Source: Alistipes finegoldii (GTDB lineage Bacteria; Bacillota; Clostridia; Christensenellales; UBA1242). From it: a DNA stretch of 64,000 nucleotides. This document shows, piece by piece, positions 8,019-62,865 of the stretch. The notes below the pieces were generated by a model that was not told the origin of the DNA, searched no databases, and saw nothing but the letters and a program-made list of their open reading frames with translations. The DNA is taken from positions 676 through 64,675 of the forward strand of contig CAVEBU010000002.1 in assembly GCA_963614045.1 (NCBI GenBank). Direction: 5' to 3'. Made by a program: the position numbers and the translations under genes. Positions within the stretch are counted from its first letter, which is position 1. Every line of letters begins with the position of its first letter.

Positions 8019-8094
8019 TATCCAACATGGACAATTAGCTCAGTTGGTAGAGCAACTGACTCTTAATCAGTGGGTCCAGAGTTCGAGTCTCTGA
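8019..8094 (+). tRNA. tRNA-Lys (anticodon CTT), CCA encoded
   Basis: Cloverleaf read by eye: acceptor GGACAAT/ATTGTCC, anticodon arm ACTGA-CTCTTAA-TCAGT, T arm CAGAG-TTCGAGT-CTCTG, 3' ACCA. Confidence 0.9.
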
Positions 8095-8138
8095 TTGTCC
8101 ACCAAGATAGGAAAAGATGCTGTAGTGGTGTCTTTTTT
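8081..8138. repeat. 58-bp direct repeat, copy 1 (last 14 nt of tRNA-Lys + 44 nt downstream)
   Basis: Identical to 8406-8463 at every position compared by eye. Confidence 0.9.
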
Positions 8139-10538: not shown

Positions 10539-12374
10539 TTATTTTTCGGATTCGGTTGGAAGCGAGTCGAGTTTTTTCTTGCGTTTATGCAGGATGATTA
10601 AAACGATGATTGTTATCACGACACTGACCCCCATTAAAGCGAGTCCGATTATTTGCGCAGTGGTTAAGTTGCCGTTGTCCAAATTCTCCGATTTGCAATA
10701 GCCCGCTTTGATTGTTTCGGTTTCGCCCTCCGAAACAGAATATTCGATTTTGGACACTCCGTTTAGCGTGCTAATGATTTTTACCGAACTTCCTTTTGCC
10801 AAAACATCTACTTCGTTGAAGCAACTTTTTTCGCTATAGATAGTGGTTTCGGTATTGGTTTTTGCGTTCGGCACGTATTTCGAGTCGGCTACAACCAAAA
10901 TGCTTGAAACGAGCGTACGGCTGTCGATATAACCGATGTATTCGGTGCTATTTTTGGTGTATTTTACTGCAACAAAAGTTGCCCCGTTGCTATCGGCTGG
11001 CAGTATCGGACTTGCGATTATCCCGATTGTGTCGCCGTAATTCAACTGCCCCAAGCTTGCAACATACGTGTTAGTTGCGACCGCTTGGCTGATTGGCATA
11101 ACGAAAATTTTGGTCACGCCCGTAACAACTTTTCCCGCCTTGTTGTCGACGAATTCGCTAGCAATTTCGTTAGCGACCGTTTCGCAGTCGGTTTTTAGGA
11201 TATAACCCAAACTAAAGCCCTCCGAAGTTGCGCTATTATTGTCAAAAACGTAGTAAAATTGCGAATAACTATCATCCAAAAGTATTAATCGCTTGCCGAT
11301 TTCGTACTCAACGGCAGGGGATAGCAGGCTCGGAAATTGATACAGACGGGCGGTTTTAGTCGTTGAAACGGCGGAAATAACCGTCGTGCTTGCGGGAATA
11401 TTAGCAAGTCTGACTTTTGGGGCGATTTGTGAGTAATTTGTAACAAAATTCTCGTTATTTGCGTAAATCTCCGTCACAAACACCTCATTTTCGCTTGTTA
11501 TGTAGTAAATTTTTCCGTTCACGAAGTCGATATCGAAACTAATTGCATTATTAGGGAGCGATGCCGTCGTGGTGTTTGCGGGGTCATCGTTGTATTTAAA
11601 AATCGTGTTTTGATTGCCGTAGTAAATGTTGCCCAAATTGTCCGTATTTAGATATGTGATATTGCTTGAAGATGTCCCCGCTTCCGAAATTTCGTGAGTT
11701 TCTGTGTCAATTTTGTAGATTTTTGTGCCGATTGAGAAGTAAATCACCGAATTATCTTCCGTCACGCAAAATCCACCGCCCGCCTCGAAACTGAGTTTGG
11801 CTTCGTTGTATGTGAGTGTTTCAAAAAGTTCAAGTTGATTTTTGCTATCATTATAATATAGGATATTGTTGCCGAAAATCATATAAGTTATGCCGTCCGC
11901 ACTGCTTGTCAAAGTTTGTTGAGATAGAACGGCTTGGTCGTTCTCAGAATTTTCGATTTTGTACGAACTTAGACTCTGTTTGCTCGGCGCCGAAGTCGAA
12001 GCGTCAACCAAATCGACAAAAAGCGTCGTTGTGGAAACAAAATATTTTTCGCCAAGACTTACAATGTCGTACGGCTGAGTTTTCGTTTTGTCGTCAGTGC
12101 TGTCGGTGTTGTGAATAATCGTGTCGGCGGTGTCGGTATGCTTGATAACTTTTCTGCCGTCCGAATCGATTAGATAAACTGCGTTGTCAAAATAGCGCAC
12201 ACGAGTGAATTTCCCAACAGTGTAATTCTCAATAGCAATCTTAATTTGCGTGGTGTTCTTGAGTTCGTAGGCGGGGAGTTCTGCAAGCAAAATCGGTGCA
12301 ATCAAGCAACTTAGCAAAATCATAATTCCGCCACACAAACTGATTATAAAACCTAAATAAACTCTTTTCTTCAT
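10539..12374 (-). CDS. large surface protein, N-terminal signal/anchor and C-terminal TM anchor, function unknown
   Basis: 611 aa with a hydrophobic N-terminus and a C-terminal TM helix followed by HKRKKK. Repeated ..IYY/..IYK.. strands suggest a beta-propeller, and two C-terminal segments look SH3b-like (weak, by eye). Confidence 0.55.
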   Translation of the reverse strand: MKKRVYLGFIISLCGGIMILLSCLIAPILLAELPAYELKNTTQIKIAIENYTVGKFTRVRYFDNAVYLIDSDGRKVIKHTDTADTIIHNTDSTDDKTKTQPYDIVSLGEKYFVSTTTLFVDLVDASTSAPSKQSLSSYKIENSENDQAVLSQQTLTSSADGITYMIFGNNILYYNDSKNQLELFETLTYNEAKLSFEAGGGFCVTEDNSVIYFSIGTKIYKIDTETHEISEAGTSSSNITYLNTDNLGNIYYGNQNTIFKYNDDPANTTTASLPNNAISFDIDFVNGKIYYITSENEVFVTEIYANNENFVTNYSQIAPKVRLANIPASTTVISAVSTTKTARLYQFPSLLSPAVEYEIGKRLILLDDSYSQFYYVFDNNSATSEGFSLGYILKTDCETVANEIASEFVDNKAGKVVTGVTKIFVMPISQAVATNTYVASLGQLNYGDTIGIIASPILPADSNGATFVAVKYTKNSTEYIGYIDSRTLVSSILVVADSKYVPNAKTNTETTIYSEKSCFNEVDVLAKGSSVKIISTLNGVSKIEYSVSEGETETIKAGYCKSENLDNGNLTTAQIIGLALMGVSVVITIIVLIILHKRKKKLDSLPTESEK

Positions 12375-12595
12375 ACGTAACTCCTACCACTATAATTATA
12401 TCATATTGTAAGGCAATTTAAAAATATTTTTGCGAATTTCTTTAAAATTCTTTATTTCGACAGTTAATGTCGTAAATTTATAATTATACTATGCTCATAT
12501 GTTCGAAAATACGACAAAAAAGTCACAAAAAGGTGTTTTTGTAACATAAAATTCAAAAATATTACAAAAATTTGCAAAAAAGTTGTCTCAAAGTG

Positions 12596-12624
12596 TTGAC
12601 AATGCGAAAAAGTTGTAATATATT
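12596..12624 (+). promoter_or_regulatory. sigma-A type promoter of the 12680 regulator
   Basis: TTGACA (12596-12601), 17 nt, TATATT (12619-12624). Confidence 0.55.
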
Positions 12625-12679
12625 TGATTTCGGAAAAGGGCAAAGAACTTTTTCGGGCAAATAAAAATAGGGGGCGCAA

Positions 12680-13222
12680 ATGAAAAAATTAGTATGGGCT
12701 AAGACGCTATTAGAATCTTACAGGTATCTATCTAGGGTGATTAAAAGCTTGGATAGATTGGTGGTGGAGCGGAGTGCAAAAAGTCACTCGGCGGGCTGGT
12801 ACGGAATGACTACGATGGAACAGATGGAGCAAATTATTGACTTGATTTTGCGTAAAAAACGACTGCAGACTGTCAAGATGCTGATTGAAGAATCGCTCAA
12901 AAATATGGAGCGAAATTCGGCGAGAGTGCTAGTAAAATTTTTTATGGAAAACGTCGATTTGGAGGATTTGGCGGAGGAGTATGGTGTCACAAAACGAACG
13001 ATGAATCGCAGGCTAAATTCTATGGCGCTTGACGTAATTGACAAGATTCGTGACTTGGGTTACGGGCTAGATAAGATAGAAATTTTGCTAGAAAACGAGG
13101 GCTGGATAATTGGAATTTTCAATAAATATGCAAGTCGATTTTCGGGCGAAAATGAGGTTAAACCACTGCTGTTGCCTTCGCTTCCGAGGATGGAAAGATT
13201 GTTTTGGCAATATTGCAAATGA
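12680..13222 (+). CDS. sigma-70 region-4-like HTH protein, putative phage late-gene regulator
   Basis: C-terminal ...LEDLAEEYGVTKRTMNRRLNSMALDVIDKI is a region-4-type HTH. It sits upstream of the terminase, as RinA/ArpU-type activators do. Confidence 0.45.
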   Translation: MKKLVWAKTLLESYRYLSRVIKSLDRLVVERSAKSHSAGWYGMTTMEQMEQIIDLILRKKRLQTVKMLIEESLKNMERNSARVLVKFFMENVDLEDLAEEYGVTKRTMNRRLNSMALDVIDKIRDLGYGLDKIEILLENEGWIIGIFNKYASRFSGENEVKPLLLPSLPRMERLFWQYCK

Positions 13223-13238
13223 GTGCTTGAAACGGGGG

Positions 13239-13282
13239 TGCATAGTACCTGCATAGTATGTGCATAGTACCTGCATAGTACC
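13239..13282. repeat. four tandem 11-bp units TGCATAGTACC
   Basis: TGCATAGTACC TGCATAGTATG TGCATAGTACC TGCATAGTACC, read directly from the sequence. Confidence 0.9.
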
Positions 13283-13312
13283 GTAAAATCGGCGTTTTTT
13301 GGGGGCAAAATC

Positions 13313-14128
13313 TTAAAAATCGAAGTCATTTACATCGGTTTTGTCGGGTAGTGAAATTTGGTTAAGCGACTTGATTTGACGTTTCGCTTGGGTGGAGCGA
13401 TTGCGTTTTGGCTTGATAATTAGTAACAAAATTATGACCGCTGGAATAGTAAGCAGAAGTATGAGAAGCAAGTTGTTTGTGCTACTAAGTTCGGGGGCGA
13501 GAATGTTGGCGCTCGTTTGAATTGTCGGCTCGAGTTGGACGACTTCGGTGTTCATTTCAAATGGTGTAAGAGCGGTCGTTAGCGAAGCGTGAACGTAACC
13601 GATTTTTGTGCCTCCGCCGCTTTCGACGAACTTGCACAAGTACCAAATTCCGTCGTCGCTAACGTTGATTTTTTGACCCGTTGTTGAACCGATATAGACA
13701 ATGTCGGTTGTGCCGTACGGGATACTTGTTAGGTATTCCGATTCGGTGGTCGGCTCAGCCCAAACGGTTGCGTTGGCGGTCTTGAGTAAGGCAAAAGTTT
13801 GCAAGCTAAAAGGTGTGGTTGGGGTAGAGTAAACGGGGGTGAGCGAATCGCTTTTGACCGCTCCCGAAATTCCCAAATACGTCACTGAAATGAACCCGTC
13901 AGCGAGTGTTTTTACGGGCTTGACGAAGTAGGTTGCTGGCAAGTTGCAAATCGCTGTTTCGGTTACAGTTTCGTCCTCGGAAATTTGGTACAAAATCGTA
14001 TTTTCGGCAGTAATTCTGTAAAAAACAGGGTCGGTTGAGCTTGCAAACGCAGGGGTCGGGCTTGCGATAAAAATTGCCAACAAAATGAATAAATATGCAG
14101 TATAAATGTATAAATATTTACGCATCAA
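13313..14128 (-). CDS. secreted/C-terminally anchored protein with two SH3b-like segments, function unknown
   Basis: Signal peptide ...ASPTPAFASS, a C-terminal TM helix followed by KPKRNRS, and an opposite-strand insertion between the regulator and terL. Confidence 0.5.
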   Translation of the reverse strand: MMRKYLYIYTAYLFILLAIFIASPTPAFASSTDPVFYRITAENTILYQISEDETVTETAICNLPATYFVKPVKTLADGFISVTYLGISGAVKSDSLTPVYSTPTTPFSLQTFALLKTANATVWAEPTTESEYLTSIPYGTTDIVYIGSTTGQKINVSDDGIWYLCKFVESGGGTKIGYVHASLTTALTPFEMNTEVVQLEPTIQTSANILAPELSSTNNLLLILLLTIPAVIILLLIIKPKRNRSTQAKRQIKSLNQISLPDKTDVNDFDF

Positions 14129-14248
14129 AAAATCTCCTTATAAAATTATAGCAAAACAGTAATTGATTTCAATATGCAATTATTGTTTTTTTTACGAGTT
14201 TTATACAAAAGTTAAACGAATTTTAAGAAAAAAACGAAAAGGTGAAGT

Positions 14249-15706
14249 ATGGATTTGCGAAAAGCGATTTGTGAGTTGGAGCAAGTTGATTTGGAAATCA
14301 AACGGCGAAAGCGGTGCAATAAACTTGCTGAATATAATACGGGCAAAAAAGTCCACTTAAAGCAGTTGGCTTTTCACAAATGCACAAAACGAAATCGCTG
14401 GGTTTTTGGAGGAAATCGAAGTGGCAAGTCGCAGTGCGGTGCGGTGGAAGTTGTTTGGCTTGCGAGAGGGAATCATCCGTATAAGCAAAACAAGTCGAGT
14501 ACGGACGGCTGGGTGGTTAGTTTGAGCCAACAAGTTCAGCGAGATGTGGCGCAACAGAAAATTTTGTACTATCTCAACCCCGACTGGATTGTGGACATTG
14601 TGATGTTGAGCGGGCGCAAAGATTCCGCAAGCAACGGGGTAATTGACTACATTTTGGTGCGTAATGTTTCGGGCGAAATTAGTAAAATCGGGTTCAAAAC
14701 TTGCGACCAAGGGCGTGAAAAATTTCAGGGAACGAGTCTTGATTATGTGTGGTTTGATGAAGAACCGCCGTTTGATATCTATTTGGAGTGTCGAATGCGT
14801 GTTTTGGACAAAGTTGGCGAAATTTTCGGCACGATGACACCGTTGAAGGGTTTGACTTGGGTTTATAACCACATTTATTTGAACGAAAGTGGCGACCCTG
14901 AAATTTGGTACGAAGAAATTGAGTGGGCGGACAATCCGTTTTTGGACGAAAAAGAAATTGCTTCGATGTCGCAAATTCTGTCGCCTGATGATTTGGAAAG
15001 TCGTCGTTACGGAAAATTTGCGAGCTACGGCGGTATGGTTTACAGCGAATTTCAAGAAAATTTGCATGTAATTGAGCCTTTTAACGTCCCGCCCGAGTGG
15101 TTTGACAAAATTAGCATTGATCCAGGTCTGCATAATCCGTTAAGTTGTCACTGGTATGCTGTTGACTATGACGGGAATATTTACGTAATTGCGGAACATT
15201 ACGAAGCTGGCAAAACTTTGGAGTATCACGCCTCAAAAATCATAGAAAAATGCGAAAAATTGGGGTGGAAGAAGGGTTTTAACGGCAAATATGAGTGCTT
15301 AATCGACTCGGCGGCGAATCAAAAGACACTTTCAGGGACGAAAAGCGTGGCGGAATTGTTCCTTGATTACGGAATTAACGTCAATACTTCGGTTAACAAG
15401 GACTTGCTGTCTGGAATTTCTCGGGTTAAAAGCTATTTGTTGAACGTAAATCACGAAACGAAGCTGTATATTTTCAAAAATTGCGTGAATATGATACGAG
15501 AAATCAAGGGGTATTGGTGGGGAAATGAAGATGCGCCAGTGAAAAAAGACGATCACGCAATGGACGATTTGCGTTATTACATAATGTCCCGCCCTGAAAA
15601 TGCGGTGCAAAAATCTCCACCGCTAAATGCGGTTCAGTTGCATAAACAAAAATTGATGAACAGGGTGCGACAACAAAATTTACACAGGAGGTGGTACGGT
15701 GATTGA
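14249..15706 (+). CDS. phage terminase large subunit
   Basis: Walker A GGNRSGKS and Walker B-like LDYVWFDEEP, plus a C-terminal nuclease-type segment ...DDHAMDDLRY; 485 aa. Confidence 0.9.
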   Translation: MDLRKAICELEQVDLEIKRRKRCNKLAEYNTGKKVHLKQLAFHKCTKRNRWVFGGNRSGKSQCGAVEVVWLARGNHPYKQNKSSTDGWVVSLSQQVQRDVAQQKILYYLNPDWIVDIVMLSGRKDSASNGVIDYILVRNVSGEISKIGFKTCDQGREKFQGTSLDYVWFDEEPPFDIYLECRMRVLDKVGEIFGTMTPLKGLTWVYNHIYLNESGDPEIWYEEIEWADNPFLDEKEIASMSQILSPDDLESRRYGKFASYGGMVYSEFQENLHVIEPFNVPPEWFDKISIDPGLHNPLSCHWYAVDYDGNIYVIAEHYEAGKTLEYHASKIIEKCEKLGWKKGFNGKYECLIDSAANQKTLSGTKSVAELFLDYGINVNTSVNKDLLSGISRVKSYLLNVNHETKLYIFKNCVNMIREIKGYWWGNEDAPVKKDDHAMDDLRYYIMSRPENAVQKSPPLNAVQLHKQKLMNRVRQQNLHRRWYGD

Positions 15707-15992
15707 CGAAAAAGATGCTGAAAAACTGACTAAATCGCTATTAAAAAAGGCGATTGGCTATACGGTTGACGAAGTCGTTGAGGAGTATGTAAACAGCGAA
15801 AATGCGGAAAATTTGCACTTAATTAAGCGAAAAATCACAAAAAAACACATTCCGCCCGACATTTCTGCGGTAAAAACGCTCTTGGAAACGACGGAAGACA
15901 ATTTTGAAAAATATCGAAAAATGAGTGATGAAGAATTGCTGAAAAAACGAGACGAGTTGCTAAAACAAATCTCAAAAGGAGGGAGCGGATGA
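15699..15992 (+). CDS. small phage protein, possibly small-terminase-related
   Basis: GTG start overlaps the terL stop, with an AGGAGG RBS. KKHIPPDISAVKTLLE resembles a conserved segment of some TerS proteins (weak). Confidence 0.3.
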   Translation: MIDEKDAEKLTKSLLKKAIGYTVDEVVEEYVNSENAENLHLIKRKITKKHIPPDISAVKTLLETTEDNFEKYRKMSDEELLKKRDELLKQISKGGSG

Positions 15993-16183
15993 AGGTATTT
16001 TTAACAAATAAGCGAGTTAAATGTACTGGGAAGGTCGACTGCAAAAATGAAATTTACTGCAATATCAAATTCAGCAAAGCGAGTATAAATTTGTGCAGGT
16101 CGTGTGCGGTGGAGTTGTACGAAAAGTTAGCCCAGTCGCTTGTGCCGAAATCGGTAAAAAGTAAATTTTATATGCAAAAATAA
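15989..16183 (+). CDS. small Cys-rich (putative zinc-ribbon) phage protein
   Basis: 64 aa; C-x5-C ... C-x2-C pattern; ATGA overlap with the upstream gene. Confidence 0.4.
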   Translation: MKVFLTNKRVKCTGKVDCKNEIYCNIKFSKASINLCRSCAVELYEKLAQSLVPKSVKSKFYMQK

Positions 16184-16201
16184 CGAAAAAGTGAGGTTTT
16201 T

Positions 16202-18124
16202 ATGCAAAAAAATCAAAAAATTGAGCAAAAAAGTAAATCTTCCAAGCAAAAAGAGTTGGTTGCTGAAATTAAGAAAGATTTCGAAAGGCGTCAAGAAGAA
16301 CGCAAGCCGTTCGATGCGCAGTGGCAACTTAATATGAATTTTGTGATGGGAAATCAGTACTGCGGAATCGGGCTAAATGACACTTTGGACGATTTCGACA
16401 AGCAGTACTTTTGGCAAGAGCGTGAAGTTTATAATCATTTGGCGCCGTTGGTTGAGACGAGGCTATCGAAATTGGCAAAAGTTCGTCCGACGATGACGGT
16501 TTTGCCCGCAAGTGCGGACGCTGACGATATAAATAACGCTCATATTTGCAAAAATATACTAAAAGCGGTCGCTGACAAGCTGGAATTGAGCGAACTTGTG
16601 GCGCAAGCGACTCGCTGGAGTGAGATTTGCGGTACGTCTTTCTACAAAATTATTTGGAACGATTCCGCAGGCTCTGTCGTTGGGCTAACGACTTTAGGGC
16701 AGAAAATTTACGAGGGCGATGTGGACATTATGGTTTGTTCGCCGTTCGAAATTTACCCCGATAGTAACACCGCAGAATCTCTCAGTGACTGCCAAAGTGT
16801 CATTCACGCACGTGCTTATGACGTTCGAACTATCAAAAAACACTGGGGTGTGGACATAAAAGGCGAGGATATTGACACCTATAATTTGCAAAATTCGCAA
16901 GTTGCGGGCGGTTTGGGGTACACCTCTCGGTCGGCAAAAGTGTCAAAAACGGTCAAACACAATCACGCAATGGTGATTGAGCGGTACGAAATGCCGAATA
17001 ATGAGTTCCCAAATGGGCGCTTGGTGATAATTGCGGGCGATGAATTGGTTTATGACGGAGATTTGCCATATTTGAATTTGCAAAACGGCGAAAGAGGTTT
17101 CCCGTTTGTTCGCCAAATCAGTACTGGTCAGCCGTCGTTGTTTTGGGGAACGAGTATAGTTGAGCGCTGTATTCCTATTCAAAGAGCATATAATGCGGTA
17201 AAAAATCGCAAACACGAGTTTATGAACAGGCTTTCTATGGGTGTTATGAGTGTGGAGGACGGCTCTGTCGATGTGGATAATTTGGAGGAAGAGGGCTTGA
17301 GTCCTGGCAAAGTCCTGATTTATAGACAAGGTTCTCGAGCTCCTCAAATGCTCACGAGTTCGAGTTTGCCGGTCGATTTTCGTGAAGAAGAAGAGAATTT
17401 GATATCAGAATTCCTTAATATTAGTGGTGTAAACGACCTTTTTGGCACAAATGCCGCCGCTTTGACTCAAATGAGTGGTGTCGCCCTGCAACTTTTGATT
17501 GAACAAGAGGATATGCGTGTGTCGGCGAGTGGCGAGTATATCAAATTTGCTCTAAAGGAAATCGGTCGCCAGATTTTGAGAATTTATAAGCAGTTCATTA
17601 CGACGCAAAGAATCAACAAAATTATCGGTGAAAACGGCTCAAGTGAGCTTTTTTACTGGGACGGAAGCGAAATTACTAGCGATGACGTTACTTTTGAAAC
17701 GGAAAGCGAACTTGGTGAAACTGTGGCGCAAAAGCGCAGTATGGTGTTTGATTTGTACAACGCAGGGCTTCTGCACGACGAAAATGGGAAAATGTCTAAC
17801 GCTATGCGCATAAAAGTTATGGAAATGTTGGGGCTTGGAATTTGGGAAAACGCTATGGACAACAATTCTCTGCAAGTCGAAAAAGCAAAACGAGAAAATA
17901 TTGAATTTGCTGAGGGCAAAGAGCCTGAAGTTCTTGAAATTCACGACCACGATTTGCATATAAATTCGCATATTGCATTTATGCTTGGTGCCGATTTTGA
18001 GAAATTAACAGCAAAGAAAAAGGATATTCGTGAAAAACTTTTGCAACACATTAGAAAGCACAAACAATTTAAAAGACTTACCATTAAAGCGGATAGCCAA
18101 ATGCTCCAAGAGGTAAGCAAATAA
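16202..18124 (+). CDS. phage portal protein
   Basis: 640 aa. The N-terminal FDAQWQLNMNFVMGNQY motif is typical of portal proteins, and the gene sits between terminase and scaffold. Confidence 0.85.
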   Translation: MQKNQKIEQKSKSSKQKELVAEIKKDFERRQEERKPFDAQWQLNMNFVMGNQYCGIGLNDTLDDFDKQYFWQEREVYNHLAPLVETRLSKLAKVRPTMTVLPASADADDINNAHICKNILKAVADKLELSELVAQATRWSEICGTSFYKIIWNDSAGSVVGLTTLGQKIYEGDVDIMVCSPFEIYPDSNTAESLSDCQSVIHARAYDVRTIKKHWGVDIKGEDIDTYNLQNSQVAGGLGYTSRSAKVSKTVKHNHAMVIERYEMPNNEFPNGRLVIIAGDELVYDGDLPYLNLQNGERGFPFVRQISTGQPSLFWGTSIVERCIPIQRAYNAVKNRKHEFMNRLSMGVMSVEDGSVDVDNLEEEGLSPGKVLIYRQGSRAPQMLTSSSLPVDFREEEENLISEFLNISGVNDLFGTNAAALTQMSGVALQLLIEQEDMRVSASGEYIKFALKEIGRQILRIYKQFITTQRINKIIGENGSSELFYWDGSEITSDDVTFETESELGETVAQKRSMVFDLYNAGLLHDENGKMSNAMRIKVMEMLGLGIWENAMDNNSLQVEKAKRENIEFAEGKEPEVLEIHDHDLHINSHIAFMLGADFEKLTAKKKDIREKLLQHIRKHKQFKRLTIKADSQMLQEVSK

Positions 18125-18167
18125 TCAAATTTGCTCGTCAGCAAACAAAAATCTTTAAGGAGTTTTT

Positions 18168-18962
18168 ATGCAAAATAATGATTTTTATACAGAACCAGCA
18201 AGTGAAGAAAATGGACAACAGGAAGAGGTTGACTTGGGTACTTTTAAGTCAGTAAAAACCTTAAAAGAAGCTTACGATTGTTTAAGAAAAGCGTTTACTC
18301 AAAACGCAATGAAGCTAGCGGAATACAAGAAAAATGAAAGCAAAAGTGAAGAAAGTGAAATTTCTGACGCAACTGAAAACTCTTCAAGAATTGATGAAAA
18401 TAGTGAAAAAACTATAAAAAATGATGAAAAAACAGCAAATTTCACTCAAAACAGTGAAACTTTGGAAAATTTGGGAATTAAAGAAACTGCTATTGAGTCA
18501 GACAAGGTGGAAGCCACCCCTGACTTGAATATGGAAAAAGTGGACAAAGATTTCTCTCCCACTTTGACTCGCTTTGAGGGTGAGGATTGGCAAAAGAAAA
18601 TACAAGATTTCTTTGCCGAAAATGAAGATGCGAGGCAATACGCAAAGGAAATTGGTTGCATAATTATGCAAAATGAAAACGTTCGTAATAGTGCTGACCC
18701 TTTGGATAAAGCGTGGATTAAAGTGTTGAAAAATAATTCCACAACTGCTATAGATGATACCAAATTAGAGCAGTATGTTTTGCAAAATGACGCATTAAAA
18801 CAAAAAGTTATTGAGCAATATTTAAAGGAATTACAACACAAAAAGTCTGCTCCCAAAGTAATTTCGGAGCGTGGCGGAACGCAAATGAATGCTACAAAAA
18901 CTCCTCACGCACTCAGTATGGCGGAAGCCAAGGAATTGGCAAAAAAGATTATGATTAAATAG
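18168..18962 (+). CDS. putative capsid scaffolding protein
   Basis: Acidic, low-complexity 264-aa protein located between portal and capsid genes. Confidence 0.5.
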   Translation: MQNNDFYTEPASEENGQQEEVDLGTFKSVKTLKEAYDCLRKAFTQNAMKLAEYKKNESKSEESEISDATENSSRIDENSEKTIKNDEKTANFTQNSETLENLGIKETAIESDKVEATPDLNMEKVDKDFSPTLTRFEGEDWQKKIQDFFAENEDARQYAKEIGCIIMQNENVRNSADPLDKAWIKVLKNNSTTAIDDTKLEQYVLQNDALKQKVIEQYLKELQHKKSAPKVISERGGTQMNATKTPHALSMAEAKELAKKIMIK

Positions 18963-18971
18963 GAGAAAATT

Positions 18972-20147
18972 ATGATTAGTTTAACAACTGCTCAAAATGC
19001 ACTGAAAAATGTGTATTTGGACGTCGTAAGTGAACAGCTGAATTTTCATGTTGACCCGATTTTTGCAATGATTAAGCAAAGTTCGGCTGATGTTTACGGC
19101 AAAAACATTATCAAACTTGTGCCATATGGAATAAATGGCGGTGTTGGTTCGGGAACGGAAGATGGCGCTTTGCCACCTTGCAAAGAGACTCATTATGTGA
19201 ATTTTTCATCAACACTTAAGAATTTATTCGGTACGATTGAAATTACTGACAAGGCTATTCGTGCTTCGGAAAACGACGAGGGCGCTTTTGTGAATTTACT
19301 GTCTGCGGAGATGGAAAGTCTGCTTTCTGCAAGCAAATTCAACCTAGAGCGTATGTTTTACGGCGATTCTACGGGTTCTTTGGCAAATATTACCGAAATT
19401 AGCAACGCTTCTAAATATTTTGTGGCGGACAATGTTGCGCCTTTCGAGACGGGAATGTTGCTTGATTTTTACAATAACGGGGTACTTGACGCAAATATGA
19501 CGGGTGTTCGGGTGGTGACTGTGGATCGCACGAACAAAAAAGTTGTACTTGACAAGGTTTCCACGAATTTTACGACTGCAAATTTGAGCAAATACAAATG
19601 CTATGTTCAAGGTAGTAAAGACAACGAATTGACGGGTTTGGGCGAGATTTTCGGCTCAAGTACCACACTTTACGGGCTAAATCGTGCTGATTATAAGGCT
19701 TTAATGCCATATTCGGCCACTCAGGGCGCTAGTACGACTTTGAGCGAAAGCTTTATTCAAGAGTGTTTGGATGATGTCGAATTGTGTTCGGGCTATCAAC
19801 CTCAAATTATGGTTGCGTCGCCTGACGCTTATTACTCTTTAGTAAAATTGATTATGTCTTACACGAAAAATGTGGAGGCGGTGAACCTAAAATGCGGTGT
19901 TACAAGTGTCGCTTATAATGGAATTCCGCTCACACGCAATAAATATGTCAGCCCTAAAACCGTTTTAATGTTGAATCCTGACTTGTTTACGCTTCACCAA
20001 TTGTGCGATTGGGAGTGGCTAACAAGCAATAATGGTGCAATTCTGACGCAAAAAGAGGGTTATCCTACATATTCGGCAACTTTGGTAAAATATGCGGACC
20101 TAATTTGTAATCGCCCTAACGCACAGGGTAAGATTACTTTGGTCTAA
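18972..20147 (+). CDS. phage major capsid protein, paralog 1
   Basis: 391 aa in the position after the scaffold. The C-terminal ...LHQLCDWEWL...YSATLVKYADLICNRPNAQ pattern is typical of HK97-type MCPs. Confidence 0.8.
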   Translation: MISLTTAQNALKNVYLDVVSEQLNFHVDPIFAMIKQSSADVYGKNIIKLVPYGINGGVGSGTEDGALPPCKETHYVNFSSTLKNLFGTIEITDKAIRASENDEGAFVNLLSAEMESLLSASKFNLERMFYGDSTGSLANITEISNASKYFVADNVAPFETGMLLDFYNNGVLDANMTGVRVVTVDRTNKKVVLDKVSTNFTTANLSKYKCYVQGSKDNELTGLGEIFGSSTTLYGLNRADYKALMPYSATQGASTTLSESFIQECLDDVELCSGYQPQIMVASPDAYYSLVKLIMSYTKNVEAVNLKCGVTSVAYNGIPLTRNKYVSPKTVLMLNPDLFTLHQLCDWEWLTSNNGAILTQKEGYPTYSATLVKYADLICNRPNAQGKITLV

Positions 20148-20161
20148 GAGGGGGTAATTAT

Positions 20162-21340
20162 ATGATTTCATTAAAAACAGCGGACAGCGCTCTCAAAAAT
20201 GTGTATTTGGAAGTGCTAAAGAACCAGTTTGACTACAATGTTGACCCATTTTTTAGTCAAATTGAGAAAACAAGCAACGATATTTCGGGCGGAACGGTTT
20301 GCAAAATAGTTTCGCCAGGTGTAAATGGCGGAATTGGTGCTGGTGCTGAAACTGGCAGTTTGCCGTCTGCGGTTGGGGCAAGTTATGTGAAACTTACCGC
20401 TCCGCTTAAGAATTTGTATGCGCAAATCGAGATTTCAGACAAGGCTTTGCGTGCTTCAGCAAACGATTCGGGTGCTTTTGTGAACCTTTTGAATGCTGAA
20501 ATGGATAATTTGATAGAATCGAGCAAGTTCAATATGCGTCGAATGATTTACGGCGACGGCTCAACAAGTATGGGCGAAGTTTTGGATTATACTTTAAACA
20601 GTCCTACATATAAAGTGGAAAATATTGAAAGATATATCGTCGGAATGCGAGTAAACGGCACAATTGACGCTCTAACTGTGACAAATATGAACGATTTGGA
20701 TGTTTTGGACGTCGATTATGTGAACAGCAAAATAACTGTGGAAAGCAGGGGAGTTCTGACTTCTGATGTTGAAGACGACGAGGTTTTTGAAATTTGTTTA
20801 ACCAACAATTACCACCCAATTACTGGTATTGGCAAGCATTTTTCGGTGAAAAACGGCACAATTTTTGGTATTGCAAAGGAAGAAAATGAATTTATGATGC
20901 CAAATTGGGTCAGCGTTGCTAGTTCAAAATTTGATTACATTTCGCTTTTGCAAGCGATTGATATGACAAGAATGGACAAGGGTGCTAACACTGATTTTAT
21001 CGTAACCAGCTTCGATTTTCGCCGTACAGTGCAAAAATTGCTGAAAAATAACGCAATTAACTGCGATTTGCAGGTGTTGGAGGGTGGCTTCCGCACGTTG
21101 AGTATTGACGGCGTTCCTCTATATGCTAATAGATTTATACCAGAGAGGACGGCTTATTTGCTTGATTCAAGTTCGTTTGCGTTACATCAATTATGTGATT
21201 GGTCGTGGTTGACAAACGATAAAGGCGAAATTTTACGACAAAAAGAGGGTTATGCGGCACATAATGCGACTTTGGTTAAATATTGCGAGCTAATTCCTAA
21301 CAAAATGAGTTCTAACACAAAAATTTTGTTAACTCAATAA
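20162..21340 (+). CDS. phage major capsid protein, paralog 2
   Basis: 392 aa, colinear with 18972-20147. About half the positions are identical in the segments I aligned by eye (MISL.TA..ALKNVYL.V...; LHQLCDW.WLT...G.IL.QKEGY....ATLVKY). Confidence 0.8.
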   Translation: MISLKTADSALKNVYLEVLKNQFDYNVDPFFSQIEKTSNDISGGTVCKIVSPGVNGGIGAGAETGSLPSAVGASYVKLTAPLKNLYAQIEISDKALRASANDSGAFVNLLNAEMDNLIESSKFNMRRMIYGDGSTSMGEVLDYTLNSPTYKVENIERYIVGMRVNGTIDALTVTNMNDLDVLDVDYVNSKITVESRGVLTSDVEDDEVFEICLTNNYHPITGIGKHFSVKNGTIFGIAKEENEFMMPNWVSVASSKFDYISLLQAIDMTRMDKGANTDFIVTSFDFRRTVQKLLKNNAINCDLQVLEGGFRTLSIDGVPLYANRFIPERTAYLLDSSSFALHQLCDWSWLTNDKGEILRQKEGYAAHNATLVKYCELIPNKMSSNTKILLTQ

Positions 21341-21357
21341 CAAAAAGTGAGGTTTTT

Positions 21358-21738
21358 ATGGCGTTAATCAAGATTTTTAGCGATGTTTTTGATATCGCTC
21401 AGCGAGTAAAAGAGATAGATTCGGGCTATTTTATTGTTTATAATACAAAAAAACACAGGTATGAAGTGCATAATAGTCACCAATTCGGGTCAACTTTCTG
21501 TATAGTTTGCGATAGCGGGTTGAATAGCACTGTAATTACAAAGTTAAGAAAGTCAAAAATCGAGAACATAGACAAGATTTTGCGTGAAATTGATGAAAAT
21601 AACGCAAAAAATGAGCAAAATGTAGCAAAAAAGCTGAAAAATGAGGCTTCTTTTAAGCTAAAGGAAATGTTTGATTACGCAAAGAAACGGGAGTCCGATA
21701 GTGATTTTAGCGAAAGTTATAAGACTATTTGGGCGTAA
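21358..21738 (+). CDS. phage protein, unknown function
   Basis: 126 aa. Its translation-initiation region is identical to that of the portal gene (AAAAAGTGAGGTTTTTATG). Confidence 0.5.
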   Translation: MALIKIFSDVFDIAQRVKEIDSGYFIVYNTKKHRYEVHNSHQFGSTFCIVCDSGLNSTVITKLRKSKIENIDKILREIDENNAKNEQNVAKKLKNEASFKLKEMFDYAKKRESDSDFSESYKTIWA

Positions 21739-21753
21739 ATAGGAGGTTAATAA

Positions 21754-22326
21754 ATGACTGTTTTAGATGTTGTAAAATTGGTTGCGCAATATATTGGTGA
21801 TGCAGATTTGCTGTCAACGACGACACTTGGCGGGCAAACGTCACCGACTGAACAGCAAACAAGCAAAATAAACACGTTAGTTAGTTGTGTTAATGATACT
21901 GTGCAAAATTTGGCGATTATGTATTTCCCACTCAAAAAAGAGGAAGTTGTGACCAGTTCAAACGGTTCGTATTCGTTTACTCTATTTTCAAAGCCGTTGC
22001 TTGATATTCTCAAAATTGTGGACAATCGGCTTAAATTTTCGGTAGATTATGCTATGTTTCCTGATTATTTTGAGTCAAAAGCGGGCAGTTTGTTCGTTTC
22101 ATACACATATTTGCCGAGCGAAGTTAGTTCGATGTCCTCAAAATTAGAGGTTGTGGAGAATAAAGTTACTGCCAGGATGATTGCGTTGGGTGTTGCGAGT
22201 AGATATTTTTTGATTGTTGGAATGTATCAAGACGCAAACAACTGGAACGAAATGTTTGAGCGTGCGATTTTGGTGGCTCAAAGAAGAAAAGACAACATAG
22301 TTCTCAAAAAGAGAAGGTGGTTATAG
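21754..22326 (+). CDS. phage structural protein, possible head-tail connector
   Basis: 190 aa; the call rests only on position after the capsid genes. Confidence 0.3.
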   Translation: MTVLDVVKLVAQYIGDADLLSTTTLGGQTSPTEQQTSKINTLVSCVNDTVQNLAIMYFPLKKEEVVTSSNGSYSFTLFSKPLLDILKIVDNRLKFSVDYAMFPDYFESKAGSLFVSYTYLPSEVSSMSSKLEVVENKVTARMIALGVASRYFLIVGMYQDANNWNEMFERAILVAQRRKDNIVLKKRRWL

Positions 22327-23811
22327 GTGTTTTATAAGCAAAAAATACCTCAAAATACCAAATCTAACGTGAAAATTCAGCTAACTGACTTTTCGAAAGG
22401 AATTAACACACAAATTACACAAAATCTTTTGCCATTGAATTATGCTGTAAATAGTTACAATTTTGACTTCAATAAGCGCAGTTTGGCGACAGGACTTGGG
22501 ATTAAGGAGTTGTCGATTCCTTATAGTGAGACGCTTTCAAAGTCTTTCGTGCCGTCCGATTCGGTACATCAGCTTTACAGATTTTGGCAATATACGAAAT
22601 ACGACGAAACGTCAGACAGCTATATTCCGTTGCTAATGTTGTATGGCGATGACGAATTTTTGTATTATGCGAGGCTAAAAACTAGCCAAACGAACTTCAA
22701 TTTGCTAAATGTGACATTTCCGGATATTCCGAACGGTCTTAACTATAGAACGGACGACGGCGACTGCTTTTATGCGTGCGGTGATAGTAAAATTGTGAAA
22801 TTTTCGGCTTCGACGACGGAAACTTTCAGTGATAGCGTACCTAGAATTACCTCAATAGCGCTTCACGCAGGCAGACTTTTTGCTACAGTTAACGGCGACC
22901 AAAATGTTGTTTGGTTTAGTGATGACCTTGACCCAACTAACTGGAAAGTTAGCAGTTTTGAGGGCGGTTACATCGAATTAACGGGCGAAAGGGGAGTTTG
23001 CAAAAAGGTTATTGAAGCAAATAATTTGCTTTACGTGATTCGGGAGTACGGTATCAGTAAAATTTCTGGCTGGGGCTTGCAGGACGATTTTGTTGTCAAA
23101 AATATGTATTTAACGACGGGAAAATTGTATCACGAAACTGCAAGATTATGCGGTCGAATTGTGATAATGCTTTGTACCGACGGACTGTATTATTTCGACG
23201 GAAGCAGTATGAATAAGATAAATTTGGGCATTGAAGAAATGTTTGCTGGAGTCGACAATAGCAGTGCTTTTGGGGCTTTTTTGGACGGAAAATACTATTT
23301 AGCGTGCAAAATGAACTATAATGACGGGGTTTTTGTGGGGTGTGAGAGCAATTCTTATGTAAATAACACCTTGCTAGAACTCGACCTCAACACCTTCGAT
23401 ATCAACATTTTGCGGGGCGTTGATGTGGTTTATATGGACGGTATAAGATTTAATAATTATACAAAATTAGGTATAATATTAAACGGCACAAACGGGAATA
23501 AATTATATGAATTGACGCACACTGGCGAAGTGAACGGAGTGGCAACGTCGAAATATTGGTGTTCACCGCTGACGGATATGGGGTATCCAAATTATCGCAA
23601 GGCGATTAAGAGTTTGACGATAAATACAAAGACGGATATAACTGTGATTTTTGATGCTGACGGCAAGAAGTATAGTTTCGCTGTCAAGGGAAGTGATGTT
23701 CCGTCGAAAATTCCGATTAATATTTTTTGCTCAAAATTCAGCGTGGCATTTTCTTGTGCGACAAAAGCGTGTGAAATTTCCGACCCGCTAATTCAAGTTG
23801 CGTTGGTGTAG
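22327..23811 (+). CDS. phage structural protein, unknown (possible short-tail/neck component)
   Basis: 494 aa with a GTG start abutting the upstream stop. Repeated beta-strand-like motifs; no family recognised. Confidence 0.3.
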   Translation: MFYKQKIPQNTKSNVKIQLTDFSKGINTQITQNLLPLNYAVNSYNFDFNKRSLATGLGIKELSIPYSETLSKSFVPSDSVHQLYRFWQYTKYDETSDSYIPLLMLYGDDEFLYYARLKTSQTNFNLLNVTFPDIPNGLNYRTDDGDCFYACGDSKIVKFSASTTETFSDSVPRITSIALHAGRLFATVNGDQNVVWFSDDLDPTNWKVSSFEGGYIELTGERGVCKKVIEANNLLYVIREYGISKISGWGLQDDFVVKNMYLTTGKLYHETARLCGRIVIMLCTDGLYYFDGSSMNKINLGIEEMFAGVDNSSAFGAFLDGKYYLACKMNYNDGVFVGCESNSYVNNTLLELDLNTFDINILRGVDVVYMDGIRFNNYTKLGIILNGTNGNKLYELTHTGEVNGVATSKYWCSPLTDMGYPNYRKAIKSLTINTKTDITVIFDADGKKYSFAVKGSDVPSKIPINIFCSKFSVAFSCATKACEISDPLIQVALV

Positions 23812-23818
23812 GTAGTAT

Positions 23819-24253
23819 ATGGATTATATATTAAATGATTTGATTGATAGGGTTGATATGCTTGAGAATCTGGTGTATCAATTGAAAAAAGATTGTCTAA
23901 ATATGCCGTTTAGTCAGTTTGTAAAGCAAGATTTAACTCAAACTTTTACAATTTCGGGAGCGAATTCTTTTGAAATTGGGAGCTTGAGCGGTGTAGGTAG
24001 TGCTGAAATTTATATTTTATGTAAAATTAGTTGTTCGGTTGAAACTGAGGTGTTCGTCGATATTGGGAATTCTGTGGAGTGTAGCAAGAAAGTTGCTTCG
24101 AACAGCCAAAATTCGATATGCACATTTGCAATTAAAACTAGCGATATAGGGAGCGTTAAATTGAGAATTGAAAATAGTTCGATTACGGGGTCTATAAGCG
24201 AAATTAGTGTAATTGTGAGCAAAAATGCGACATTTAGTAGTGTTTTTGCATAA
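23819..24253 (+). CDS. phage protein, unknown function
   Basis: 144-aa ORF with tight spacing to the upstream gene. Confidence 0.4.
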   Translation: MDYILNDLIDRVDMLENLVYQLKKDCLNMPFSQFVKQDLTQTFTISGANSFEIGSLSGVGSAEIYILCKISCSVETEVFVDIGNSVECSKKVASNSQNSICTFAIKTSDIGSVKLRIENSSITGSISEISVIVSKNATFSSVFA

Positions 24254-24261
24254 AATTGGGT

Positions 24262-24295
24262 AGTACTATGCACTGCATAGTACCTGCATAGTACT
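24262..24295. repeat. TGCATAGTACC motif: one inverted unit followed by two direct units (palindromic core)
   Basis: AGTACTATGCA-C-TGCATAGTACC-TGCATAGTACT, about 100 bp upstream of the 24399 ATG. Confidence 0.85.
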
Positions 24296-24398
24296 GTTTA
24301 AAGGTCGTGAAATATGGTAAAATATAGTAAATTATATGGCAAAATTTTATTAAAACAGAAAAGGTTTGAAATATATTTAAAGAGTAAAGGAGGAAATT

Positions 24399-25289
24399 AT
24401 GTCAACGGAAAATATCTTAGATGAAACTATGAAAAATGAACAAAAAATGTCAAAATCCACTGAAAATTTTGATATTGAAGGGATTAAAGTTGCTTTGGAA
24501 GGGATTGAAAAGAAGTATGAGGCGGAATATCCGAGCTTGAATCCTGATGAAAGCACTATGCCTCAGTATAAGGATAATTCTTCAAAGAGTTATGAGGAGA
24601 TTTCACAAGAAGCAAAAGAGGCTTTGAGTGAGTATCAAATGTCAAATATTGGGCAAATTCAGGACGAATATGCTGAAAAAATGCAAGAATTGAACCTAAA
24701 AGAGCAAAAAATCAATATGGAATCCGATTATGACACCGAAGATTTGAAAGCTGAAGCGCAGTTGGAGTTGGAGAAAAAGAAAGCCGACCTAATTTCGCAA
24801 GGAATTGAACGCAGTAGTATTGCGCAAAATTCCAAGCAGGCAGTAGTTTCGCAATATGACAGCGAGTTAATAAGGGCGATTGAGGAAAAGCAAATAGCGA
24901 TTTCGGAAATTGAACTCAAACGCTCAATGCTTCAAAACGATATGAACGCCGCTTTGGAGAAATTCGACATCGCTTACGCTTCAAAATTGGAGAGTAAAAT
25001 TGAGGAACTGTCCAAAAAATACGACGAGGAAATGATTGCGCTTGAAAAGTACAATGCGAAAATTTCTGAACTTCGTAACGCAAGAAATCAAGAGTGGGCG
25101 AAGTGGGTGAAGGAAAAAACTTCCGAGATTGATGCCACAAAATCTCGCAAAAAAGTGGAATATTTGGTAGATGTAATCAAAAATTTGTCAAAAGAAGAGG
25201 CGCAAGCATTAATGCGTGACCAAGAAATCATCGATTCTTTGGGTGATTATTATCAAATCGTCCTCGATTTTGCAAACCGCAGAAGGTAG
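24399..25289 (+). CDS. coiled-coil phage protein, unknown function
   Basis: 296 aa, E/K/Q-rich heptad-like sequence, AGGAGG RBS. Confidence 0.45.
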   Translation: MSTENILDETMKNEQKMSKSTENFDIEGIKVALEGIEKKYEAEYPSLNPDESTMPQYKDNSSKSYEEISQEAKEALSEYQMSNIGQIQDEYAEKMQELNLKEQKINMESDYDTEDLKAEAQLELEKKKADLISQGIERSSIAQNSKQAVVSQYDSELIRAIEEKQIAISEIELKRSMLQNDMNAALEKFDIAYASKLESKIEELSKKYDEEMIALEKYNAKISELRNARNQEWAKWVKEKTSEIDATKSRKKVEYLVDVIKNLSKEEAQALMRDQEIIDSLGDYYQIVLDFANRRR

Positions 25290-25292
25290 TTT

Positions 25293-25793
25293 ATGAACGA
25301 TTTATTAAAAGACAAACTAAAATCTTATAGCTTTTGGGTGTCGTTAGCAAGTGCGATTTTACTTTTGGTGCAAACCATCGGCAGACCGTTGGGTTTGGTA
25401 ATTGACGAATCGACTTATATGTCAATTGTAAATAGCGTTTTGGGTGTGTTTGTCGTGCTGGGAATTATTAGTCATCCCGCACAAAATTTGTTAAAAACTA
25501 GCACAACACAACATGAAGAAATTACTGAAGATGAGAAAACAAATTCAAAAGATGAAAATGCTAAAAATGATGACTATGTTGCAAAAAATAGCGGGAATAC
25601 TGCAGAAAATTGCGGGATAGTCGCAAAAAATTGCACTTCATCATCCGAAAATGAGGGGCTAGTGATAGATTCTAAAAGCGGTTGCGATGGCGGTGAAATT
25701 GATACTTCTAATAATGAGAATAGCGACTTAAAAGACTTGTCGAGCGAACGAATTCAGCAAGCAAAACAAGATTTTATCAACTTATATAAGTAG
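25293..25793 (+). CDS. phage holin-like protein with long C-terminal tail
   Basis: Two TM helices lie in the first ~65 aa (FWVSLASAILLLVQTIG, VLGVFVVLGIISHP), arranged as in phi-LC3/SPP1-type holins. It is the last gene of the cluster. Confidence 0.6.
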   Translation: MNDLLKDKLKSYSFWVSLASAILLLVQTIGRPLGLVIDESTYMSIVNSVLGVFVVLGIISHPAQNLLKTSTTQHEEITEDEKTNSKDENAKNDDYVAKNSGNTAENCGIVAKNCTSSSENEGLVIDSKSGCDGGEIDTSNNENSDLKDLSSERIQQAKQDFINLYK

Positions 25794-25800
25794 TTGAATT

Positions 25801-25824
25801 GAGGGGGCACGCCCCCTCTTTTTT
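25801..25824. terminator. bidirectional intrinsic terminator
   Basis: GAGGGGGC-AC-GCCCCCTC followed by TTTTTT, between convergent genes. Confidence 0.8.
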
Positions 25825-38295: not shown

Positions 38296-38371
38296 TGGTG
38301 ACCCGTCCGCGACTCGAACGCGGGACAACTTGATTAAAAGTCAAGTGCTCTACCTACTGAGCTAACGGGCC
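38296..38371 (-). tRNA. tRNA-Lys (anticodon TTT)
   Basis: The reverse complement GGCCCGTTAGCTCAGTAGGTAGAGCACTTGACTTTTAATCAAGT...GACGGGTCACCA folds as a cloverleaf. Confidence 0.9.
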
Positions 38372-38374
38372 ATA

Positions 38375-38449
38375 TGGCAGGGGTGGCAGGATTTGAACCT
38401 ACGGGTGCTAGAGTCAAAGTCTAGTGCCTTACCGCTTGGCTACACCCCT
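38375..38449 (-). tRNA. tRNA-Gln (anticodon TTG)
   Basis: Reverse complement AGGGGTGTAGCCAAGCGGTAAGGCACTAGACTTTGACTCTAG...CACCCCTGCCA. Confidence 0.85.
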
Positions 38450-38494
38450 ATAATACGGGTCTTATACAAGCTGGTGCTTGATGCCCAAAAGATG

Positions 38495-38569
38495 TGGCAG
38501 GGGCAGAAGGATTTGAACCCACGAATGCTTGAGTCAGAGTCAAGTGCCTTACCGCTTGGCGATGCCCCT
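38495..38569 (-). tRNA. tRNA-Gln (anticodon CTG)
   Basis: Reverse complement AGGGGCATCGCCAAGCGGTAAGGCACTTGACTCTGACTCAAG...GCCCCTGCCA. Confidence 0.85.
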
Positions 38570-38643
38570 ACGATGTAGTTTACTTTTGGTAAACTAGATA
38601 CTCAAGGAACTTGTTCTCATAAAAGACAGCTTAAATCTGTCAC

Positions 38644-38720
38644 TGGGGTGAATAGTGGGGTTCGAACCCACGACCTCCAGAGCCACAATCTGGCGCTCTC
38701 CCAGCTGCGCTATATCCACC
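38644..38720 (-). tRNA. tRNA-His (anticodon GTG) with encoded G-1
   Basis: Reverse complement GGTGGATATAGCGCAGCTGGGAGAGCGCCAGATTGTGGCTCTGG...TATTCACCCCA, with an extra 5' G opposite the discriminator C. Confidence 0.85.
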
Positions 38721-38797
38721 ATAATTGAGTGATACAAGTTAAGAAGTCCCCAAAAAGCGAACTGCATTTAGAAAACCAGAGAGTTATTCGTCTGGAA

Positions 38798-38874
38798 TGG
38801 TGCGCCCAGAGAGACTCGAACCCCCAACCTTCACCTTAGAAGGGTGTTGCTCTATCCTGTTGAGCTATGGGCGC
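38798..38874 (-). tRNA. tRNA-Arg (anticodon TCT)
   Basis: Reverse complement GCGCCCATAGCTCAACAGGATAGAGCAACACCCTTCTAAGGTGA...TGGGCGCACCA. Confidence 0.85.
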
Positions 38875-57149: not shown

Positions 57150-57158
57150 GAGAAAAAT

Positions 57159-58736: not shown

Positions 58737-58770
58737 TATTTATTTTAATATGTTAAATGAAGGATTGAAG

Positions 58771-59883: not shown

Positions 59884-59892
59884 GAGATTAAT

Positions 59893-61383: not shown

Positions 61384-61388
61384 CTATT

Positions 61389-62749: not shown

Positions 62750-62769
62750 TTATTAGTATGGCATTTAAA

Positions 62770-62827: not shown

Positions 62828-62865
62828 AACATAAAAACAATTAAGTAAAAAGGCATATACAAACA

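Follow-up and report, generated by a model that had tools for sequence, protein, structure and literature searches.

A tandem pair of capsid genes

The window analysed here (the whole stretch of 64,000 nucleotides, positions 676 to 64,675 of contig CAVEBU010000002.1, assembly GCA_963614045.1, Alistipes finegoldii, GTDB order Christensenellales) carries a phage-like gene cluster in which two adjacent genes on the forward strand, MCP1 (copy A) and MCP2 (copy B), each encode a predicted major capsid protein (MCP). The genes are separated by a spacer of 14 nucleotides. Their products were aligned by BLASTP over residues 1-390 of each, with 149 of 397 positions identical (38%) and 61% positives (E 1e-91). 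An earlier note, made from the sequence alone, had described the pair as tandem, full-length, diverged and intact MCP paralogs, and this description was borne out by the alignment together with the family matches and fold models given below; its estimate that about half of the residues are identical was too high. The colinear terminal motifs that it had quoted, MISLxTAxxALKNVYL at the N-terminus and LHQLCDWxWLT...ATLVKY at the C-terminus, are present in both proteins, and each gene has, as stated there, a separate Shine-Dalgarno (SD) sequence (TAGGAGaaaattATG for MCP1 and GAGGGGGtaattatATG for MCP2). No promoter or terminator was detected between MCP1 and MCP2 in terminator and promoter scans.

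The two proteins are most alike in residues 81-140 and 341-391 (61-67% identity), which were assigned on the predicted models to the spine helix/P-domain core and the C-terminal strands, and least alike in the extra or insertion region (residues 141-220, 22%) and the A-domain region (residues 221-340, 30%). The predicted tip of the E-loop, formed by residues 53-68 of both proteins (19128-19175 and 20318-20365), is glycine-rich, with the pattern G-x-N-G-G-x-G-x-G-x-E-x-G-x-L-P. This motif lies in a part of low model confidence, is invariant or nearly invariant in A copies, B copies and single-copy relatives, and may be a conserved contact or cross-link site.

Capsid family and predicted fold

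Both proteins score above the curated cut-off (80 bits) of the NCBIfam model NF033394, capsid_maj_Podo (MCP1 214.7 bits, MCP2 170.1 bits), and match no other NCBIfam model at E 0.01 or better. Matches to phrog_14242, 'major head protein', were obtained at 3.5e-40 for MCP1 and 8.6e-30 for MCP2. In Pfam searches neither protein reached any model, unlike two relatives (P0152 and P0169) that score above the cut-off of SU10_MCP. AlphaFold2 models, generated from input alignments of 92 rows (MCP1) and 84 rows (MCP2), had mean predicted local distance difference test (pLDDT) values of 82.8 and 85.0, respectively, and an almost identical order of helices and strands. When compared to PDB with Foldseek, both models were matched with a probability of 1.00 to the capsid proteins of Pa223, SU10, D3, Mic1, A-1(L) and HK97, at modest TM-scores of 0.4-0.66. 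These scores are partly explained by an extra region of about 80 residues by which both proteins exceed the NF033394 model (311 positions), a beta-rich stretch at approximately residues 135-215. A search of solved structures with the family profile, at the sequence level, gave no match at E 0.1 or better.

Judged by profile matches and predicted models, MCP1 and MCP2 are HK97-fold MCPs of the capsid_maj_Podo/SU10-like family, and their genes are placed accordingly in the head module, 3' of the portal and scaffold-like genes and 5' of the head-tail adaptor genes. The Pfam Gp23 family, to which T4 gp23 and gp24 belong, was not matched by the window MCPs even at E values of up to 1. Since the pair falls into the capsid_maj_Podo/SU10-like family and not the gp23/gp24 family, its duplication is independent of that in T4.

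Relatives and origin of the pair

More than 5,700 clusters match MCP1 and more than 4,300 match MCP2 at E 1e-5 or better, nearly all of them from metagenome-assembled genomes (MAGs) of gut or rumen Clostridia. Copy number was counted in 92 loci from IMG/VR and GTDB genomes and in further contigs, a survey for the duplication in related elements that the earlier note had proposed. The tandem pair was found in 21 loci including the window, and a single MCP in about 75 loci, which are more distant relatives. Copy B lies directly 3' of copy A in 21 of 21 A-clade loci (1-21 nucleotides apart where measured). It is complete in 20 of them and cut by the end of the contig in the other, and an A-clade locus lacking B was not found among the loci examined. 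Premature stops in relatives, which the earlier note had named as a refuting condition, and loss of one copy were thus largely not found, save for one in-frame stop that is considered below. Among cultured phages (tblastn of 50,697 phage records), only distant MCPs (21-25% identity) were detected, in Arthrobacter, Microbacterium and Cellulosimicrobium phages. All were single-copy, so that they were rejected as a precedent for the tandem pair and used as outgroups.

In a neighbour-joining tree rooted with the MCPs of phages Shocker and Brad, the A copies, the B copies and A+B each formed a clade, with bootstrap values of 88%, 98% and 86%, respectively. Within A, two subclades (A1 and A2, 100/100) are mirrored by B1 and B2 (94/100). 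The tree was enlarged to approximately 340 sequences by the addition of 236 database proteins; A (79 sequences) and B (68) remained sister groups in a clade of exactly 147 that contained no single-copy protein. The matches listed comprise, when clustered at 90% identity, at least 62 groups for A and 52 for B, and divergence within the copies reaches approximately 0.8 (A) and 1.0 (B) substitutions per site. Because A, B and A+B each form clades in trees with phage outgroups, the phylogeny indicates one old duplication that was followed by co-divergence of the two copies. Separate duplications in each subclade, or the gain of B by transfer, were rejected, as the groupings A1+B1 and A2+B2 received 0% bootstrap support, against 86% for A+B.

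Selection and asymmetry between the copies

For close orthologous pairs, the ratio of nonsynonymous to synonymous substitutions (dN/dS) was about 0.04-0.09 for both copies (A 0.046-0.080, B 0.039-0.072), with dS at or near saturation. Both copies are hence under strong purifying selection and, by this measure, functional. Copy B has evolved approximately 15% faster than copy A (slope of B on A distances 1.15, r = 0.84). Nine alignment columns discriminate A from B, and eight of these carry the A state in 76 single-copy proteins; by this sequence criterion, MCP1 has retained the ancestral character and MCP2 is derived. The diagnostic changes include E160V, R186Y, Y367H, D354K and T336S, and the changes in MCP2 fall in the N-arm and in surface regions. 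Strictly class-specific residues, i.e. columns at least 85% conserved in both copies with differing residues, were not found, and with only the nine columns passing a looser test a sharp 'penton signature' is lacking. Both A and B keep every one of the 36 columns that do not vary in a mixed family alignment. Gene conversion between the copies was considered and rejected, as A-B identity is 42.5% within the same genome and 41.0% between genomes.

The SD sequence of the A gene is similar to that of single-copy genes (TAGGAGA, mean -8.5 vs -8.6 kcal/mol), whereas that of the B gene is new (GGAGG or GGGGG, mean -12.4 kcal/mol) and stronger than that of A in 16 of 16 complete pairs. Weak expression of MCP2, as would be a sign of a minor protein, was rejected for this reason and because neither a terminator nor a promoter intervenes.

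Gene cluster around the pair

The features of the cluster are listed in Table 1. The 264-residue putative scaffold gave no family match in Pfam, PHROG or NCBIfam, and relatives carry a homolog of it in the corresponding place. A prohead protease was not detected in the operon. The three accessory genes upstream of the operon occur at the same place in two-copy relatives. The largest of their products (611 residues) has no match in PDB, Pfam, PHROG or NCBIfam, whereas the 180-residue protein (12680-13222, forward strand) shows a weak match to a sigma-70 region-4-like helix-turn-helix, as does a protein of locus L100 with a weak match to Sigma70_r4; it could be the element's own late activator or small terminase. 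Two near-consensus sigma-70 promoter-like sites (12457-12624) precede the gene of the 180-residue protein, and the promoter match of the terminase operon is only weak.

Table 1. Features of the phage-like cluster, with positions in the window (aa, amino acids; ORF, open reading frame)
Feature	Position	Strand	Product size	Remarks
Three conserved accessory genes 5' of operon	10539..14128	mixed	611 aa (-), 180 aa (+), 271 aa (-)	No firm annotation
Large terminase	14249..15706	+	485 aa	First gene of operon; Pfam Terminase_6N and Terminase_6C, phrog_2
Two small ORFs between terminase and portal	15699..16183	+	97 aa, 64 aa	Conserved in relatives; no family match
Portal	16202..18124	+	640 aa	Pfam P22_portal 1.6e-22, SU10_portal 5.9e-08; phrog_156
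Putative scaffolding protein	18168..18962	+	264 aa	Named by position, in the portal-MCP interval
MCP1 (copy A)	18972..20147	+	391 aa	ATG start; predicted HK97-fold MCP, ancestral-type sequence; proposed hexamer former
MCP2 (copy B)	20162..21340	+	392 aa	ATG start; predicted HK97-fold paralog, derived, faster-evolving; proposed pentameric vertex protein
Downstream virion genes	21358..25289	+	126 aa, 190 aa, 494 aa, 144 aa, 296 aa	Order conserved in relatives; 190 aa, weak SU10 adaptor match; 494 aa, phrog_3287 virion structural; 296 aa, DUF7934
Holin	25293..25793	+	166 aa	phrog_297 holin 8.3e-13
Operon end	25801-25818	+		Strong terminator-like hairpin (terminator scan)

The cluster is flanked in the window by host genes for DegV and TetR proteins on one side and for a Gate-domain membrane protein on the other, and the remainder of the window is bacterial chromosome (GroEL, TypA/BipA, tRNAs, an MMPL transporter). 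A cluster of five tRNA genes lies at 38296-38874 on the reverse strand (Lys-ttt, Gln-ttg, Gln-ctg, His, Arg-tct) and a separate tRNA-Lys-ctt gene at 8029-8104. No tRNA gene adjoins the phage-like cluster, which hence has no tRNA attachment site. An ORF of 580 codons (27074-28816), located between the Gate-domain gene and an Exo_endo_phos gene and without family match, is missing from the otherwise syntenic locus L093 and is therefore a lineage-specific insertion. Positions 56000-64000 have a G+C content of about 0.27, compared to about 0.40 elsewhere, and encode a DpnII restriction enzyme, a D12 adenine methyltransferase, a GmrSD-type endonuclease and an AAA_15/AbiEii-like ATPase; this part of the window is likely a horizontally acquired defence island.

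Proposed roles of the two proteins

By analogy with solved capsids, we favour, at slightly better than even chances, the reading that MCP1 and MCP2 share one shell, in which MCP1 forms the hexamers and MCP2 the pentameric vertices. The shell gene of a podovirus-type head module of the SU10/capsid_maj_Podo family was duplicated in tandem, and both HK97-fold proteins, retained together and under selection, are made from the same late operon. They would then co-assemble in one capsid around the portal, together with the 264-residue putative scaffold, with MCP1 most likely entering the hexamers and MCP2 most likely the eleven pentameric vertices. The presence of two proteins would spare a single one from taking both the 5-fold and the 6-fold conformation.

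A shared shell is suggested because the invariant residues and lattice-forming segments are common to both proteins, the portal, scaffold and terminase are present as one set, and the copies are strictly retained together. That MCP1 forms the hexamers and MCP2 the pentons is suggested because MCP1 is conservative and MCP2 derived, and because the divergence concentrates in the A-domain region, which in T4 is the site of substitution: mutations in the A-domain allow gp23 to replace gp24 (PMC11071501). It is further suggested by gene order, as the penton paralog is encoded directly 3' of the hexamer MCP in T4, the Nocturne116/c2-like phages and Jabs, that is, in all three solved tailed-phage capsids with two HK97 paralogs (T4 gp23/gp24; Nocturne116 MCP/VP, PMC13595954; Jabs MCPh/MCPp, doi 10.64898/2026.07.24.740622). 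The analogy to gp23 and gp24 as hexamer and vertex proteins, drawn in the earlier note, was retained as the best available model, under which MCP2 would take the penton role. The stoichiometry of about 1:11 expected there for such a role was found to have no basis, as the ratio follows the triangulation (T) number (55:120 at T=3, 55:180 at T=4 and 55:360 at T=7).

Several observations weigh against this division of roles. The stronger SD sequence of MCP2 speaks against a low-copy or minor protein, and it fits a small capsid (55:120 at T=3) and mixed capsomers equally well. MCP2 is neither shortened nor simplified, being equal to MCP1 in length and predicted structural elements, and the diagnostic substitutions are few (n=9). 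Finally, copy B of one metagenomic contig from IMG/VR (L009, 7189-8355) contains a single in-frame stop near 8272, which replaces the conserved Tyr of KEGYPTH. Its closest relative, L005, which is 88% identical to this copy B, is intact, and the stop stems from a sequencing error or else represents a rare null allele.

The main rival, which we regard as rather unlikely, is that MCP1 and MCP2 are mixed in the hexamers, and perhaps also in the pentamers, be it in fixed alternation (a pseudo-T lattice) or in variable proportions. The conserved SD sequences of both genes are strong, that of MCP2 the stronger, and suggest comparable amounts of two proteins that are equal in size and predicted architecture; a precedent for such mixing is the two-component encapsulin of Streptomyces lydicus, which has an HK97 shell (PMC11071501). 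The tight correlation between the pairwise distances of the two copies across genomes (r 0.84) would agree with mixed capsomers, but it is also expected from common descent alone. The A-domain region, which makes contacts within capsomers, is among the most diverged (30% identity) and fits separate homo-oligomers better, and a tailed-phage hetero-hexamer of two HK97 paralogs was not found in the literature searched.

That each paralog builds shells by itself, so that particles would be of two types or sizes or the paralogs would be used under different conditions, is improbable, and for the two capsid sizes that the earlier note had suggested no support was found. It is true that single-copy relatives show one family member to suffice for a complete shell and that the family-invariant residues are all kept in both copies; however, 1-21 nucleotides separate the genes, which belong to one operon and have no intervening promoter or terminator that could permit separate use, there is a single portal, a single scaffold and a single terminase, and if either copy sufficed, their strict joint retention in 21 of 21 loci would be difficult to account for. 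To the same low degree we credit a role of MCP2 as a shell-related protein outside the lattice, for instance in a ring around the portal vertex, in the nucleation of assembly or as a decoy that disturbs the assembly of related invading phages: as the derived copy it has changed in the N-arm and surface regions, but it has a full predicted HK97 fold, keeps every family-invariant residue and is encoded inside the structural operon next to MCP1, and no precedent was found. A redundant or decaying duplicate with one functional copy is strongly disfavoured and very improbable, since the stop in L009 stands against a duplication older than the divergence of about 0.8-1.0 substitutions per site within each copy, dN/dS values of 0.04-0.09 in both copies, and a complete B in all loci save the one cut by a contig end, with the 88%-identical L005 intact.

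Nature of the element

The cluster measures 12-15 kb from terminase to holin. Its chromosomal site was compared in the window (10539-25818) and in the loci L093, L094, L097-L102, L016 and L020-L047. In many other loci, with two copies or one, the cluster has recurring neighbours: the genes for a polysaccharide deacetylase and SSB lie on its upstream side, two conserved ORFs and the RNase J gene on its downstream side. The window and L093 have host flanks in common although synonymous sites are saturated or nearly saturated in most genes. Between these two loci, the module genes show dN/dS values of 0.03-0.43, indicating purifying selection on all of them, and most have a dS that is saturated or almost so. 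Neither an integrase gene nor genes for replication or lysogeny were recognised in the cluster or within approximately 10 kb of it in the window and six other two-copy loci (L093, L094 and L099-L102), where three conserved proteins are unannotated. A single-MCP relative (L097/L098, 1-16000) lies directly after the operon of ribosomal-protein genes, rpoA and the L17 gene, in the order RNase H, a 99-residue protein, portal, scaffold, MCP, further genes and holins; there is no terminase within 10 kb, which implies that the packaging gene is located elsewhere or absent.

Because integrase and replication genes are lacking and the chromosomal site between ssb and rnj is conserved across diverged genomes, the cluster looks, by gene content and synteny, like a phage-like element that has been domesticated and is passed on vertically, comparable to a gene transfer agent (GTA) or PBSX, and not like a mobile or inducible prophage; it does not resemble the ordinary small, inducible prophage implied in the earlier note. 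A podovirus-like GTA, FpGTA, has been described in Faecalibacterium (PMC12946183, 2026), and the same work reports, for Christensenellaceae MAGs (HGM11616 sp900761075 and QANA01 sp019420265), fragments of 4.1 kb and 6.3 kb packaged in the manner of a GTA, without naming a locus (Table S1). We tentatively propose, as a possibility with the balance still somewhat against it, that the cluster is a podovirus-derived, vertically inherited GTA of Christensenellales-type gut Clostridia, situated between ssb and rnj and possibly behind the reported 4-6 kb packaging in Christensenellaceae, in which one host lineage duplicated the shell gene into a hexamer/pentamer pair.

Significance

To our knowledge, hexamers and pentamers are made of the same protein in nearly all HK97-fold capsids, and dedicated penton paralogs were long known from T4 only. 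The exceptional standing that the earlier note gave to a second, dedicated paralog was overstated in that two further cases were solved in 2026 (PMC13595954; doi 10.64898/2026.07.24.740622). The pair represents a further independent origin of a second shell paralog, in an unstudied capsid family without a solved structure. As close single-copy relatives occupy the same chromosomal site, the benefit of a second shell protein becomes testable by comparison and gene swapping. The age and spread of the duplication, the matched single-copy relatives at the same site and the GTA-like context add to its interest. If the cluster is a GTA of abundant gut Clostridia, it bears on how domesticated capsids are tuned in head size, stability and assembly fidelity, and it would be a candidate locus for the GTA-type DNA packaging already seen in gut samples.

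Comparison with known systems

In the literature searched, no description of a two-MCP element from gut Clostridia was found; papers on JBD30 and on Patience/Adjutor use the phrase 'two major capsid proteins' in irrelevant senses. In proposed function, the nearest known parallels are the hexamer-penton pairs of T4, the c2-like phages and Jabs. As in T4 gp23/gp24, the shell proteins are homologous, have a predicted HK97 fold and come from neighbouring genes, of which the second encodes the specialised paralog, whereas the split into hexamers and eleven pentameric vertices is only proposed here. The origin of the present pair is independent, there being no Gp23-family match in Pfam; the element is tiny (12-15 kb), whereas T4 is a myovirus with a genome of 169 kb, and a prohead protease was not found in its operon. 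The two paralogs are also more similar to each other (38% identity) than gp23 and gp24, for which 17% is quoted (PMC11071501).

The Lactococcus phage Nocturne116 and its c2-like relatives (PMC13595954) are likewise small and structurally simple, have a Gram-positive host and encode the second HK97 paralog directly after the MCP; the authors consider the arrangement of an MCP with a dedicated vertex protein rare and its benefit unclear (PMC13595954, 2026). Nocturne116 differs in being a siphovirus with a prolate head, an isopeptide chainmail and weak similarity between MCP and VP, whereas the present module is podovirus-like (P22/SU10-type portal), its paralogs are much more alike and the element is apparently domesticated. 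In the Mycobacterium abscessus phage Jabs (doi 10.64898/2026.07.24.740622), the genes are again adjacent, hexon first and penton second, and the shell consists solely of two paralogs, MCPh (594 residues) in the hexons and MCPp (257 residues) in the pentons. These are very unequal in size, unlike the proteins of 391 and 392 residues found here, and they form a T=9 siphovirus capsid with disulfide cross-links. The two-component encapsulin of S. lydicus (PMC11071501) is similar in that paralogous HK97-fold shell proteins are encoded together, and there they were seen co-assembled in one shell; it is, however, a T=1 metabolic nanocompartment with random mixed pentamers and without portal, terminase or DNA packaging.

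With FpGTA of Faecalibacterium prausnitzii (PMC12946183, 2026) and other GTAs, the cluster shares a compact chromosomal operon comprising terminase, portal, scaffold, MCP, a few conserved virion genes and a holin, and with FpGTA in particular the podovirus type, the occurrence in gut Clostridia and the lack of integrase and replication genes. FpGTA has the gene order TerL, portal, Prp-like, MCP, with a single MCP annotated as N4-gp56 family, whereas in the present cluster a 264-residue scaffold-like gene and no Prp-like gene precedes the MCPs, which match only capsid_maj_Podo in NCBIfam. Orthology was rejected because the FpGTA MCP is single-copy and of another annotated family; the present cluster may be the Christensenellales counterpart of FpGTA.

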